24,000 bases of DNA from Hespellia sp. (GTDB lineage: Bacteria; Bacillota; Clostridia; Lachnospirales; Lachnospiraceae). How positions within the stretch are numbered: position 1 is the stretch's first letter; each line of letters begins with the position of its first letter. This document shows, one piece after another, positions 6,741 to 22,713 of the stretch. The stretch covers positions 24,846-48,845 of the forward strand of contig JAQUVD010000026.1 in assembly GCA_028693555.1 (NCBI GenBank), in the 5' to 3' direction. Under the pieces are notes generated by a model, which did not search any database, was not told where the DNA came from, and saw nothing but the letters and a program-made list of their open reading frames with translations. A program made the translations under genes and the position numbers.

Positions 6741-6769
6741 TTGACATGTGAATTTGTCAGTGTTAAACT
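6741..6769 (+). promoter_or_regulatory. Candidate sigma-A promoter of the hypD operon
   Basis: Consensus TTGACA (6741-6746), 17-nt spacer, TAAACT (6764-6769). I found no better -35/-10 pair between here and the activase ATG at 6876. The -35 overlaps an imperfect inverted repeat, TGACA-N9-TGTCA. Confidence 0.5.
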
Positions 6770-6790
6770 GAAAAACATAAAAAAGATGCA

Positions 6791-6827
6791 AAGGCGTATC
6801 CCGGATATGGGGTACGCCTTTTTTTGG
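6791..6827 (+). terminator. Strong intrinsic-terminator hairpin inside the hypD-operon leader (candidate attenuator)
   Basis: 12-bp stem AAGGCGTATCCC (6791-6802) / GGGGTACGCCTT (6809-6820), loop GGATAT, followed by T5 (7 consecutive T counting the paired TT). Lies between the predicted promoter and the RBS GAGGTG (6864-6869). Confidence 0.65.
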
Positions 6828-6875
6828 GATGATGATTGTATTCTCGACTTCTGTCGAACATTGAGGTGTGGAAAT

Positions 6876-7793
6876 ATGAAAGAGACTTGCCTGATTACAG
6901 ATATTCAGAGATATTGTATCCATGATGGAGATGGAATTCGAACCACCATATTTTTTAAAGGTTGTCCATTGCACTGCCAGTGGTGTCATAACCCCGAGTC
7001 GCAGTGTTTTTTGCCACAGCTATTAGATAATCAGGGGAAATGTACCGGATGTGAAGCGTGTGAGATTACCTGTCCATCGCGTGCAATTTCCTTGAGAGAT
7101 AAGAAAGCATATACGAATCGGGATATGTGCAGCGGATGTGGCAGTTGTGAGGAATTCTGTTTTCAGAGTCTGAGAGAAATCAGTGGAAGAGCGTATACGG
7201 TAAAACAGCTGTTTGATGAAGCATGCAAAGATGAGATGTTCTATCAGGAGTCCGGTGGAGGAGTTACCTTATCAGGGGGCGAGGTAATGGCGGCAGACAT
7301 TGAGTTTGTGTTAAAGCTTTTGAAAAAACTGAACCGATTTGGGATTGACTGCATGATTGATACCTGCGGTCTGACCGCATGGGACAACTTCGAGAGAATT
7401 CTTCCCTTTGTACATACATTTCTATATGATATCAAAGTGATGGATGAACAGCTTCATGTAAAATATACAGGCGTATCCAACGAAAAGATTTTGACAAATT
7501 TAGAAAAATTAAGTATGGCAGGAGCCAGAATTTACATTCGAATTCCGGTGGTAAAGGAAGTGAATGGATCTGACGATGCGATGCAGGATATTATTTCATT
7601 TATTCGGGAGAGACGGATTCAGGCAGAAAAAATTTGTCTTCTTCCTTATCATAATACAGGAAGTGCAAAGTATGCGAGGCTTGGCATAGCATATCAGGGA
7701 GAACTGTTTCACAAGCCGGATACAGAAGAATTAGAGCACTGGAAAGCATTATTTCAGCAAGCAGGATATCCACAGGTGCAGATTGGTGGATGA
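6876..7793 (+). CDS. Glycyl-radical enzyme activating enzyme (radical SAM, with an extra 2x[4Fe-4S] ferredoxin-like insert)
   Basis: 305 aa from the ATG at 6876 (RBS GAGGTG). N-terminus ..IQRYCIHDGDGIRTTIFFKGCPLHCQWCHNPES.. carries the CX3CX2C radical-SAM motif. Two ferredoxin-type Cys clusters follow (CTGCEACEITCP, CSGCGSCEEFC), typical of activases of the eliminase-type GRE group. The stop overlaps the next ORF (ATGA at 7790-7793). Confidence 0.9.
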   Translation: MKETCLITDIQRYCIHDGDGIRTTIFFKGCPLHCQWCHNPESQCFLPQLLDNQGKCTGCEACEITCPSRAISLRDKKAYTNRDMCSGCGSCEEFCFQSLREISGRAYTVKQLFDEACKDEMFYQESGGGVTLSGGEVMAADIEFVLKLLKKLNRFGIDCMIDTCGLTAWDNFERILPFVHTFLYDIKVMDEQLHVKYTGVSNEKILTNLEKLSMAGARIYIRIPVVKEVNGSDDAMQDIISFIRERRIQAEKICLLPYHNTGSAKYARLGIAYQGELFHKPDTEELEHWKALFQQAGYPQVQIGG

Positions 7794-7807
7794 GAAAGGA
7801 TGAACAT

Positions 7808-20215: not shown

Positions 20216-20230
20216 AAGTATATCCCTCCT

Positions 20231-21625
20231 TTATAGTGGCAAATCAATGTGAATGTCTTTGCCTTCTTTGATGTCGATGGTTAGAATTCCATTGTTTACG
20301 GTCTGCTCGATATGATAGGTGCTGGGCTCTTCGGACACCATCTTGGATTGTTTCAGATAACGCATCCGTTCCAGGCCAACCGTATCAAAAATATGGTCTG
20401 TCTGATGGTGCACGTTCAATCCAAGCTTTGGGGCGGAGCCCATAACCGTATTGGTGCAGTCGCTGCAGTTCCCAATCAAAATATCGGTGCAGCCTTCCTT
20501 CTTGAAATTCAGACATTTCTGTGCCTGTCCGGGACAGTTGCCAGGATTTTCACATTTTAAAGTTCCCTTGATGTCCATTGCCTGTTTACATTTTTGAATG
20601 CAGACAACCTCTCCATTCATTTTCGCAGCAAGATCTTTCATGCGTGTTTCGTTTCCGCCACAGGCGCAGAGGAGAAGACCGAGCTTTGCACCATTCAAAT
20701 CTTCAAGCGGCGCAGTGACGATGATACCGCCGGTTGTCTTAGTGACAGGTGTATCGAGCGTGACGGCATGCCCGGTAAAAGGTCCACCCATGATAATTTC
20801 GCCATAATCGCCATCAATGCCTCCGGCACGTTCAATCAGTGAACCTGCCGTTGTTCCTAAAGGGACATCCATAAATACACGCGTATGTGTGCCGCCTTTT
20901 AACTTGCCTGCCACGGAAACATGTTTACTGATACACGGACGCTTTTCGTAAACCGCTTCTGCGATACGAAGCAGTGTCTCGACATTCATGACGATTGCAT
21001 CCGCAGCAGAAGGAAGCTCCGTTGGTGCAAGCAGCGTTCCAAGTACCTCCCGTACAACGGCCCGTTCCTCGCCCATGGGATAGAGGTCCGGAAGAAGATG
21101 AATGGAAATGTGCTCCTCTTTTTTGAGGTATTTATTTAATGTGGCAATTTCATCGTGATGCTTTGCTTTGATTGCAAATACACCCTGACCTGCATGACAG
21201 AGCTGCATGACAAGTTTTAACCCGGCAATTGTTTTCGCTGTCTGCTCCCGTATCTGTTTCATATTGTGTTCAAGAAGCGGTTCACACTCAGCGGCATTGA
21301 CAAGGACATAACCACCTTTCAGGTCAACACTGCATTTGACTGCAGTTGGAAAACCAGCCCCGCCCATACCAACGATTCCTGCATCGCCGAGCAGCTGATA
21401 GGCATCGGTTTCTTTCAGTGGAAGGAAGGCGTCGGAAGCTTCGCCATCGATGATGATGGAGGTATCCGTTATTTCACATACAGTTCCTTTCACAGAGGAA
21501 TGAATGGGGGCACCCAGACCGGAAGGCGTTGCAATGAGTGTACCGGGAAGAACTGGATTGCCTGCCGCTGCAACGGCTTTGCAGGGGACTCCGATATGTT
21601 GTTTTAATAAAATATTATATTTCAT
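20231..21625 (-). CDS. prdC: Proline reductase-associated electron-transfer protein PrdC (RnfC-like)
   Basis: 464 aa from ATG 21625 (RBS AAGGAG at 21638-21633). RnfC/NuoF-like region ..GIVGMGGAGFPTAVK.., Cys-rich C-terminal part. Located 15 nt upstream of prdA. The ORF-track N-terminal extension to 21814 runs through the tRNA-Sec gene and is spurious. The ORF is uninterrupted, so this is a Cys rather than Sec version. Confidence 0.85.
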   Translation of the reverse strand: MKYNILLKQHIGVPCKAVAAAGNPVLPGTLIATPSGLGAPIHSSVKGTVCEITDTSIIIDGEASDAFLPLKETDAYQLLGDAGIVGMGGAGFPTAVKCSVDLKGGYVLVNAAECEPLLEHNMKQIREQTAKTIAGLKLVMQLCHAGQGVFAIKAKHHDEIATLNKYLKKEEHISIHLLPDLYPMGEERAVVREVLGTLLAPTELPSAADAIVMNVETLLRIAEAVYEKRPCISKHVSVAGKLKGGTHTRVFMDVPLGTTAGSLIERAGGIDGDYGEIIMGGPFTGHAVTLDTPVTKTTGGIIVTAPLEDLNGAKLGLLLCACGGNETRMKDLAAKMNGEVVCIQKCKQAMDIKGTLKCENPGNCPGQAQKCLNFKKEGCTDILIGNCSDCTNTVMGSAPKLGLNVHHQTDHIFDTVGLERMRYLKQSKMVSEEPSTYHIEQTVNNGILTIDIKEGKDIHIDLPL

Positions 21626-21646
21626 AGGACAAAACTCCTTTTTCTT

Positions 21647-21743
21647 TGGCGGAAGCATGTGGGAATCGAACCCACCCGGGATATGAGAATACCCCGCATC
21701 GGTGTTGAAGACCGTGAAGACCACCAGTGTCTTAGCTGCTCCC
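21647..21743 (-). tRNA. selC: tRNA-Sec (anticodon UCA)
   Basis: Minus-strand read: GGGAGCAG-CT-AAGACACTGGTGGTCTT-CACGGT[CTTCAAC]ACCGATG-CGGGGTAT[TCTC]ATATCCCG-G-GTGGG[TTCGATT]CCCAC-ATGCTTCC-G-CCA.

Anticodon loop is C-U-UCA-A-C. There is an 8-bp long variable arm, a canonical T-arm, discriminator G and encoded CCA. Length is about 97 nt.

Acceptor stem has 7 pairs plus one G-A mismatch by my hand fold. Confidence 0.85.
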
Positions 21744-21810
21744 ATACGTTTTGTTAGGCTAAGTATAAAATAAACGGATGCATAAAGGAAATGACAGAAT
21801 TGCACGTAGG

Positions 21811-22713
21811 TCATTCCAAATCCGCATGCTTCTCATCTGTAATCAGATCTGGAAGCGTAGCCTGAATATATTCGATAAAATGTCTTGCCGCGGGAGTCAG
21901 TGTACTTTGCGTACGCATGCCAATTCCGAGCTGACGAGAATAATACGGTTCTAAAGGAAGTGTTTTCACCTTCTTATGTGCGCCGTTTACGACAAGACTT
22001 GGTAAGATACTAATGCCAAGATGATTCGCGACCATAGAAACAATCGTGGAGTCATCTTTTGAAGATAACAGTGTATTCGGTGTGATTTTTTCTTTGATCA
22101 ATGCCGCATGGACATCATAATCTGTACCTTCCGCGGAAATGATAAAAGGCTGGTCTTTCATTTTAGATAAAGAAAAACGATCCATAGAAATGTATGGCTC
22201 TGTTTCAGGAAGAACGGCAACGAGTGGATCTTCATAAAGCGGAAGCCAGTTCAGTGAGCTTGCGTGTTTCTTACTGAGCAATCCGAAATCGGCAATGCTG
22301 TTTTCTACCCATCCAACGATGTCATCGGTGCCACCTTCAAGCAGCTCGATTTCAATTCCGGGATATTCTTTCCGAAATTCATATATGATAGAGGGAAGCC
22401 AGTTTCTGGAAATGCTGACAAAGCTGGCAATAATCAGATGTCCACGCTCCAATCCGTTAATTGACGCGATGGTCTGCTCCAATTGTTCGTTCACTGCTAA
22501 CAGCTTGCGTACGAGAGGAAGCATATCCCTCGCGTTGGGCGTGAGAGTGACCCCCTGCTTGGAACGTAGAAAGAGTGGAAATCCCAGCTCGTTCTCCATT
22601 GCTTTTAAAATATGGCTGACACCCGGCTGTGTGTAGCCCATACGTTCCCCGCTTTTTGTGAAATTCCGGGTCTCTGCAATATCTGCAAAGAGTGCATATT
22701 TATTAACATCCAT
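21811..22713 (-). CDS. LysR-family transcriptional regulator
   Basis: 300 aa. N-terminal HTH ..FADIAETRNFTKSGERMGYTQPGVSHILKAMENELGFPLFLR.. plus a LysR substrate-binding domain. RBS AAAGGGGTGA. Ligand and targets unknown. Confidence 0.92.
   Translation of the reverse strand: MDVNKYALFADIAETRNFTKSGERMGYTQPGVSHILKAMENELGFPLFLRSKQGVTLTPNARDMLPLVRKLLAVNEQLEQTIASINGLERGHLIIASFVSISRNWLPSIIYEFRKEYPGIEIELLEGGTDDIVGWVENSIADFGLLSKKHASSLNWLPLYEDPLVAVLPETEPYISMDRFSLSKMKDQPFIISAEGTDYDVHAALIKEKITPNTLLSSKDDSTIVSMVANHLGISILPSLVVNGAHKKVKTLPLEPYYSRQLGIGMRTQSTLTPAARHFIEYIQATLPDLITDEKHADLE

Follow-up and report, generated by a model that had tools for sequence, protein, structure and literature searches.

A predicted hydroxyproline dehydratase cassette fused to selAB and a tRNA-Sec-led proline reductase gene group in a Hespellia sp. 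contig

Proline and hydroxyproline (Hyp) reduction is a major energy route of gut Clostridia and shapes competition with C. difficile. That the machinery decoding selenocysteine (Sec) travels with the genes of D-proline reductase (prd) is already in the literature, and we describe here a form of this association from Hespellia sp. (Lachnospiraceae; assembly GCA_028693555.1, contig JAQUVD010000026.1, positions 24,846 to 48,845 of the forward strand). In this stretch of 24,000 nucleotides (nt), called the window below and numbered from its first letter, the gene of a predicted trans-4-hydroxy-L-proline dehydratase (hypD), with its activase gene and proC, is fused to the Sec-decoding genes selA and selB, and the tRNA-Sec gene (selC) lies tightly in front of prdC. 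Both the fusion of hypD-proC with selAB and the junction at which the tRNA would serve as a leader are new variations on it.

Plasmids of 21 kb in three type strains of Terrisporobacter encode prdCAB(DE) along with selD, selA, selB and selC, and also a LysR protein and a cysteine desulfurase (csd) (PMC10564238). The Terrisporobacter plasmid NZ_CP154623.1 (L172 in our survey) shares with the window prdC-prdA-prdH-prdB, selA-selB and a tRNA-Sec gene immediately 5' of prdC on the same strand. The plasmids differ from the window by the presence of selD, a 'selenium metabolism-associated' LysR gene, csd and prdD/E, by the lack of hypD and proC and by a selC-prdC gap of 177 nt, against 21 nt in the window. 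Moreover, the Terrisporobacter copy is plasmid-borne whereas the window is chromosomal, the locus standing between eno-secG-rnr-smpB and an ABC (ATP-binding cassette) transporter. Another arrangement, that of Dorea, Faecalimonas, Extibacter and Acetivibrio ethanolgignens (Dorea type below), consists of selD-selA-selB-LysR followed at some distance by prdF, on the opposite strand, and selC-prdC-prdA-prdH-prdB-prdD. As in the window, the sel genes are a few kb from prd and selC is directly upstream of prdC; unlike in the window, sel and prd are co-directional, selD and prdF are present and hypD-proC is absent.

The adjacency of hypD and proC is itself established. Most genomes with HypD have no neighbouring proC and use pyrroline-5-carboxylate (P5C) otherwise (PMC6219649), and Hyp induces the prd genes in both C. 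difficile and C. scindens (PMC9044972). C. difficile has the same enzymes as the window, the same hypD-proC adjacency (PMC6219649, PMC9044972) and the same prdA-prdH-prdB core (PMC11229817). In contrast to C. difficile, a LysR gene precedes prd in the window, and the three gene groups are found within 16 kb, two of them being fused. The prd genes of C. difficile are controlled by the sigma-54 activator PrdR, and its hypD, prd and selDAB genes form three separate loci.

The clustering of Sec-decoding genes with the gene of their client selenoprotein, often the sole client, was set out for fdhA in 2006 (PMC1794560). The proteobacterial selA-selB-selC operons flanking fdhA (PMC1794560) resemble the window in that the Sec genes are tied to a client and selD is often elsewhere. 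Their client is however formate dehydrogenase, and no substrate-supply enzymes are fused to sel. Regarding the tRNA junction, tRNA genes are co-transcribed with a downstream mRNA in thrU-tyrU-glyT-thrT-tufB of E. coli. The likeness to the window lies in a tRNA gene directly upstream of an open reading frame (ORF) on the same strand and in a single precursor for tRNA and mRNA, which for the window is predicted from the sequence; the difference is that the tRNA of the window decodes a codon inside the downstream operon, across a spacer of 18-23 nt in its clade. Finally, selC is nested in or overlaps selB in Alphaproteobacteria and others, for which PMC8124441, as cited in PMC13188914, proposes a coupling of the tRNA-Sec supply; the coupling is there to SelB, here to the selenoprotein operon.

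The hydroxyproline cassette fused to selAB

The window genes were called from the ORF listing, ARAGORN, Rfam and NCBIfam, and the pairs of scores given below are the family score and the curated cut-off of that family. All the genes named in the original prediction, which was made from the letters of the window, were present at or near their predicted positions and scored as members of their families (NCBIfam, ARAGORN, Rfam). The first gene group is as follows, L005 being an independent sister contig.

6741-6769, forward strand: promoter-like boxes TTGACA, 17 nt, TG-n-TAAACT, from a promoter scan; kept in L005; putative function
about 6797-6836, forward strand: terminator-like hairpin in the hypD operon leader, immediately downstream of the promoter-like boxes; kept in L005; putative function
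6876..7793, forward strand: radical S-adenosylmethionine (radical-SAM) activase of a glycyl radical enzyme (HypD activase); TIGR02494, 320.9 against 174
7790..10183, forward strand: HypD, predicted trans-4-hydroxy-L-proline dehydratase, glycyl radical enzyme; NF043068, 1454 against 1100
10217..11011, forward strand: proC, pyrroline-5-carboxylate reductase; TIGR00112, 295.6 against 196.75
11012..12409, forward strand: selA, selenocysteine synthase; TIGR00474, 585.7 against 267.9
12411..14381, forward strand: selB, Sec-specific elongation factor; TIGR00475, 359.4 against 242.25

The genes of this group follow each other with gaps of -4, 33, 0 and 1 nt: the end of the activase gene overlaps the start of hypD by 4 nt, hypD and proC are 33 nt apart with no hairpin found between them, the stop codon of proC abuts the ATG of selA (...GAGGGATGTAAATGG), and a single nucleotide separates selA from selB. 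The 0-nt junction of proC and selA is present in L005 too. The promoter scan found no promoter-like site in the 3' end of proC, and no convincing terminator was found inside either of the two gene groups of the window. In relatives selA never stands alone: it begins about 14 nt after selD in L042, and in L087 and L171 it begins 9-42 nt after a TusA/DsrE gene. Since it is always tightly coupled to an upstream gene, selA probably depends on an upstream promoter.

The assignment of the glycyl radical enzyme to HypD is based on its equivalog score and conserved active site, from which its Hyp dehydration activity is predicted. The match to NF043068 covers 784 of the 784 model positions, and the protein aligns over its full length with 6VXC, the crystal-structure sequence of HypD from C. 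difficile (1248 bits), the glycyl radical motif RVAGY and the catalytic Cys-x-Glu loop being kept. In the same alignment the counterparts of D278, H160, S334, F340, Y450 and T645, which we take to be the residues of the Hyp pocket in the C. difficile enzyme, are all kept. The ORF of the activase spans 6741-7793, and the alignment with L005 places its true ATG at 6876. The hairpin of the leader, at 6797-6836 (GGCGTATCCCGG...GGGGTACGCC, then seven T), may act as an attenuator. A leader terminator as a general trait of hypD was considered and rejected, such a structure being found in only 17 of 75 hypD loci, with unconserved sequences.

The order of genes in L005 is the same as in the window from eno to LysR, the tRNA-Sec gene included, with identities of 70% for SelA, 85% for HypD and 92% for PrdB. 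The spacer between selB and prdB differs, holding EamA, rubrerythrin and GGDEF genes in L005 and a T-box transporter in the window. Because the layout recurs in this independent contig, the adjacency of selAB, hypD and prd is not due to chance. To place the fusion, a SelA-anchored scan took one genome per GTDB species and returned 80 loci, annotated with tblastn and ARAGORN, and the HypD side was surveyed in the 10-kb neighbourhood of the 80 most similar HypD loci on metagenome contigs (70-77% identity). Apart from the window, L005 was the only contig in which the hypD-proC-selAB fusion was seen. In the metagenomic survey, selA, selB, selC and prd genes were absent from the 10-kb neighbourhood of all 80 HypD loci, and proC was directly downstream of hypD in about half of them. 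Since these 80 loci sit in other contexts, the hypD cassette appears mobile, and activase-hypD-proC is best described as a three-gene mobile unit, inserted directly before selA in this lineage only. Compositional signs of a recent transfer of the cassette were looked for and none was seen.

In relatives with a SelA of 55-65% identity (L087, L171, L086, L006) the convergent layout of selAB and prd is kept, with other genes upstream of selA. L087 and L171, the nearest lineages to have kept selD, carry TusA/DsrE and YeeE-like genes upstream of selA, with selD and a NifS-like gene on the downstream side. In L086, L088 and L006 the upstream genes are unrelated ones and selD is missing. Flanking selAB are, in L086, genes of a MarR regulator and an aldo-keto reductase; in L088, that of an iron-containing alcohol dehydrogenase (Fe-ADH); in L006, SHOCT-domain genes; and in L087, TusA/DsrE. 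In the place of hypD-proC, L087 (7479-9991) and L171 (20010-21428) carry Se_S_carrier, TusA, YeeE-like (Sulf_transp) and TusA-DsrE genes before selA, which probably serve selenium uptake or trafficking.

The absence from the window of selD and of a proline racemase gene, already noted in the original prediction, was borne out by tblastn at E <= 1e-8 with SelD and PrdF of a related locus as queries. With SelD of L087 as the query, no 'Hespellia sp.' entry appeared in the best 120 matches, SelD being too conserved to single out a copy. For the system to function, SelD would have to be encoded in another part of the genome.

The selC-prdCAHB group and the spread of its linkage

The second group is on the reverse strand and converges on the first one.

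21811..22713, reverse strand: prd-linked LysR-family regulator; NF040786, 147 bits against 250
21762..21790, reverse strand: candidate promoter of selC-prdCAHB, TTCCTT, 17 nt, TATACT; read from the sequence, putative function
21647..21743, reverse strand: selC, tRNA-Sec, anticodon UCA, CCA encoded; ARAGORN, and Rfam RF01852, 65.6 against a gathering score of 47
20231..21625, reverse strand: prdC, proline reductase electron-transfer protein; TIGR04481, 618.6 against 490
18434..20215, reverse strand: prdA, D-proline reductase proprotein; TIGR04480, 915.7 against 700
18179..18421, reverse strand: prdH, small factor maturing PrdA by pyruvoyl installation; NF041553 CBO2463/CBO2479 domain, 100 against 50
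17449..18177, reverse strand: prdB, selenoprotein subunit of D-proline reductase; the ORF halves match TIGR04483 at 3-147 (231 bits) and 157-238 (110 bits)
17687..17707, reverse strand: predicted hairpin resembling a Sec insertion sequence (SECIS), CUCUGCA-GUAUUGG-UGCAGAG, 7 bp, starting 17 nt after the UGA
17419..17450, reverse strand: intrinsic terminator closing the prd operon, 14-bp stem and T-run, the first strong one after prdB

The 3' end of tRNA-Sec is 6 nt before the ribosome-binding site (RBS) of prdC and 21 nt before its ATG, and the spacer holds only an A-rich stretch and the RBS (AAGAAA after the CCA, then AAGGAG). The TATACT box of the candidate promoter stands 20 nt upstream of tRNA-Sec; the block CTGTCATTTCC-TTATGCATC...TTTTATACT is kept in L005, and L171 has a TATACT box like it. 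The idea that the tRNA precursor sequesters the prdC RBS was considered and rejected, the predicted fold being an ordinary cloverleaf with a free RBS. Orthologues of the LysR regulator, 63-87% identical, are directly upstream of (selC-)prdC in L005, L169 and L171. Its identification as the 'selenium metabolism-associated' LysR was rejected, given the score of 147 against 250 and an identity of only 23-26% to the LysR encoded after selB in the canonical arrangement.

The reading frame of prdB contains a TGA at 17724-17722, with the motif TAG-U-GTCH (UxxC) in the read-through translation, and the same U motif is present in 5 other loci. Its two halves give 231 and 110 bits, the cut-off of TIGR04483 being 300. 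The SECIS-like hairpin is invariant in the window, L005, L006, L042, L086 and L087 (6 loci), and for this reason covariation support is absent. PrdC carries U at its CPGQ/CSDC sites in some species (PMC13188914). As a second selenoprotein in the window it was rejected, the ORF being uninterrupted with Cys at both known Sec positions (CPGQ, CSDC); PrdC being the Cys form, PrdB is the only UGA-recoded gene of the locus. PrdA contains ...HALTCIGP..., and the small ORF after prdA, by its domain and its place between prdA and prdB, matches PrdH (CD630_32430; PMC11229817), shown in 2024 to be required for the formation of the pyruvoyl group in PrdA (PMC11229817). In L005 (17151-20477, reverse strand) prdC and prdA are annotated publicly as a single product of 1108 residues, which is either a fusion or a read-through call.

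No tblastn match to prdD, prdE or the racemase gene prdF was obtained in the window; they are present in L042, L087, L169 and L170. PrdA, PrdB and PrdH suffice for activity in vitro (PMC11229817), so that prdD/E are dispensable there, and the racemase is required for the use of L-proline.

Among the 18 loci in which the DNA 5' of prdC was visible, selC was the immediate 5' neighbour of prdC, in the same orientation, in 17, L169 being the sole exception. These 17 include Dorea, Faecalimonas, Extibacter muris, Acetivibrio ethanolgignens and the Terrisporobacter plasmids. The combination of selC 5' of prdC with selA-selB within about 10 kb of prd was found in the window, L005 and 15 further loci. 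In the SelA-anchored scan prd was no more than 10 kb from the sel block in 14 of the 80 species, 12 of which (several Dorea, Faecalimonas, Extibacter muris, Acetivibrio ethanolgignens) have prdF on the opposite strand and then selC-prdC-prdA. The canonical block of Lachnospiraceae is selD-selA-selB followed by a LysR gene scoring 395-415 bits against 250 (NF040786; L042, L055), from which the window differs by hypD-proC upstream of selA and a T-box leader after selB. The sel block has betaine or glycine reductase genes (grd) as its neighbours in four Lachnospiraceae, one of them Hespellia stercorisuis.

The original prediction had given the pathway order, the gene identities and the position of selAB behind proC and of selC before prdC, all of which stood, and it had taken the split of the Sec machinery between the two arms as the unusual trait of the locus. 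For selC before prdC this does not hold, that placement being the rule, and the comparison of neighbourhoods shows the sel-prd linkage to be recurrent; for hypD-proC-selAB, confined to the window and L005, it does. Thus selC before prdC and sel near prd are features of an already described module rather than peculiarities of the window. This prd+sel module is common in Lachnospiraceae and Peptostreptococcaceae, and it is found on plasmids as well. What is unusual here is the fusion of hypD-proC to selAB with displacement of selD, and the tight selC-prdC junction.

Short selC-prdC junctions were found in four lineages, the window (21 nt), L005 (20), L170 (23) and L171 (18). In the Dorea-type loci and the Terrisporobacter plasmid the spacer is 94-212 nt long, with promoter-like boxes and a conserved hairpin. 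A spacer of 18-23 nt leaves no room for a promoter, and prd transcription in this clade would therefore have to pass through selC. The Dorea-type spacers share a palindromic box TATAGAA-n-TCTATAAT in 12 loci (L007, L009, L011, L016, L017, L019-L022, L025, L031, L042), and in the same loci an A/U-rich hairpin, AAGTAAACG...CGTTTTTTACTT, is conserved immediately ahead of the RBS of prdC. These two elements, both missing from the window clade, may represent an operator and an attenuator for prd.

Proposed pathway, history and rival explanations

We consider it probable, as a whole, that the locus is a compact, rearranged prd+sel module into which a hypD cassette was spliced, this reading comprising the pathway, a regulation by two operons and the history set out below. 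Judging from the families of the proteins, HypD, once its radical-SAM partner has activated it, would dehydrate trans-4-hydroxy-L-proline to P5C, which ProC would reduce to L-proline. D-proline would be supplied by a racemase encoded outside the window and reduced to 5-aminovalerate by PrdA/PrdB, with PrdA matured by PrdH and electrons coming from PrdC. Sec would be inserted at the PrdB UGA (17724-17722) by tRNA-Sec, SelA, SelB and the SECIS hairpin, together with SelD from outside the window.

Operon 1, activase-hypD-proC-selA-selB, would be transcribed from the promoter-like boxes at 6741-6769 through the leader hairpin at 6797-6836; with selAB transcribed from the hypD promoter, the Sec synthase and the elongation factor would rise with the hydroxyproline branch. 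Operon 2, selC-prdC-prdA-prdH-prdB, would start from the TATACT box, by read-through from LysR, or by both. Every prd transcript would then begin with tRNA-Sec, and RNase P and 3' processing would free the tRNA and leave a prd mRNA with a short leader. The LysR protein is proposed as the prd regulator: its orthologues precede (selC-)prdC in L005, L169 and L171, and the Sec-linked LysR is a different, unrelated protein. Concerning history, selA-selB-selD-(NifS-like) would have faced LysR-selC-prdCAHB(DE) convergently in the ancestor of the clade; in the lineage of the window the genes upstream of selA would have been replaced by the hypD cassette, and selD and the NifS-like gene would have left the locus. 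The prd+sel module thus appears as a self-contained transferable trait, able to pick up a substrate-supply cassette.

The co-induction of Sec decoding with substrate supply, suggested in the original prediction, is a reasonable hypothesis on the geometry of the operons. A stronger form is possible but doubtful: tRNA-Sec would be an obligatory 5' leader of the prd mRNA in the clade and selAB would be driven by the hypD promoter, so that Sec decoding would be made on demand, with the tRNA produced transcript for transcript with its only client mRNA and with tRNA excision as a checkpoint. If this were true, the excision of a CCA-encoding tRNA at only 6 nt from the RBS would give the prd mRNA its translatable 5' end, and tRNA maturation would be a checkpoint for selenoprotein synthesis.

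Several points weigh against the spliced-module reading. The co-transcription of both operons is deduced from spacing alone, the candidate selC promoter has a weak -35 box, and the conserved terminator-like hairpin at 6797-6836 could decouple or gate the expression of the hypD operon. The activase gives 403 bits on the HypD-activase equivalog NF043069, slightly under its cut-off of 425. No operator shared by the hypD, selC and lysR promoter regions was found, the common words being trivial and none of them kept in L005. Neither selD nor the racemase gene was found in the window, and the pathway cannot run without both. Finally, the genome may encode further selenoproteins using the same machinery.

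This last point leads to the most serious of the alternatives, in which the Sec machinery is a general-purpose one serving other selenoproteins (grd, fdhA, selD itself), PrdB being one client among them and the linkage reflecting the shared ancestry of the sel block. The sel block indeed neighbours grd genes in four Lachnospiraceae, Hespellia stercorisuis among them, many Clostridia have several selenoproteins (PMC13188914), and our survey of this genome was confined to the window. On the other hand, an operon clustered with Sec genes is often their sole client (PMC1794560), the Terrisporobacter plasmids carry prd and the full sel set with no other selenoprotein gene, and, PrdC being in the Cys form, PrdB is the sole UGA gene of the locus. 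That PrdB is the dominant or only selenoprotein, as the original prediction had it, would fit the known pattern, and we regard a general-purpose machinery as quite possible without being the likelier case.

A neutral rearrangement, which seems to us rather unlikely, would have brought the hypD cassette beside selAB by chance, the latter keeping their own expression from a weak internal promoter or by read-through and the adjacency being without regulatory meaning. The cassette is found in many unrelated contexts, the genes flanking selAB turn over freely in the clade (L086, L088, L006, L087), the selB-prdB spacer is unlike between the window and L005, and the search for a shared operator was negative, all of which are in agreement with such an event. 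It fits poorly with an exact 0-nt proC/selA junction kept in two lineages whose SelA differ by 30%, with the lack of a promoter-like site in the 3' end of proC and with the fact that the inserted genes feed the enzyme served by the Sec machinery. As for HypD and ProC working in proline biosynthesis or osmoprotection instead of a Stickland route, with prd nearby incidentally, we hold this to be very improbable. The racemase gene was not found in the window and most HypD genomes have no neighbouring proC (PMC6219649), as this explanation would have it; but hypD-proC is beside a complete prdCAHB core in two lineages, a racemase gene is located past the syntenic transporter in L169 and next to selC in L170 and the Dorea type, and Hyp induces prd in C. 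difficile and C. scindens (PMC9044972).

Seen as such a transferable trait, the prd+sel module helps to predict which commensals can consume the hydroxyproline derived from host collagen, and their selenium dependence. With its tight junction of tRNA-Sec and prdC, the locus is a simple natural setting in which to study how bacteria adjust the supply of a dedicated tRNA to one recoded mRNA. In practice the gain is modest and concerns mainly annotation: prdH in the operon, the distinction between prd-linked and Sec-linked LysR, and selC as a member of the prd operon.

Flanks and further elements of the window

In addition to prdH, the prd-linked LysR gene and the SECIS hairpin, the original prediction had left out a T-box and a trpX-like ABC transporter, which form an unrelated insert between the two gene groups.

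14415-17413, forward strand: T-box leader and trpX-like ABC transporter, unrelated insert; T-box at 14415-14660, Rfam score 105 against a gathering score of 93

By eye, the specifier of the T-box looks like UGG (Trp), and the binding protein of the transporter gives 258 bits, under the TrpX cut-off of 390. There is no terminator between selB and the T-box promoter, which overlaps the end of selB.

Upstream of the first group are an SDF-family transporter gene, eno-secG-rnr-smpB and a DNA-alkylation-repair gene, then a bidirectional terminator at 6668-6703. On the other side, a divergent polar-amino-acid ABC transporter, a candidate importer of proline and Hyp by our guess, starts at 23041, and the synteny transporter-LysR-prdC recurs in L169. 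In that locus the racemase gene is just beyond the transporter, and in L170 and the Dorea-type loci it is next to selC; by analogy, and as a guess, the racemase gene of the window may be a few kb past its right end. In the intergenic region between LysR and the divergent transporter (22714-23040), a strong promoter-like site for LysR is present at 22819-22790 (11 of 12 matches), with a terminator-like hairpin in the LysR leader at 22770-22742 on the reverse strand and a long hairpin with a T-run in the transporter leader at about 22900-22990 on the forward strand. A search of Rfam with permissive thresholds over 6380-6950, 21550-23100 and the selC-prdC spacer of L031 gave nothing beyond tRNA-Sec.

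The non-coding stretch 6477-6665, probably on the reverse strand, is about 97% identical to L005 5436-5625, the flanking proteins being only 61-85% identical. No Rfam match to it was found. Diverged copies with 71-72% identity are present in the Lachnospiraceae contig L167, at 8100-8319 and 1947-2122. The element comprises a core GGAATGAGAGTAAAGT, a hairpin, ACTTTATGAGGGGGG and an invariant hairpin GATAGTTG-TTTA-CAACTATC, and its first hairpin shows compensatory changes, GACATT/AATGTC in one copy and CATCTTC/GAAGATG in another, making it a candidate for an unannotated small RNA or a repeat element.

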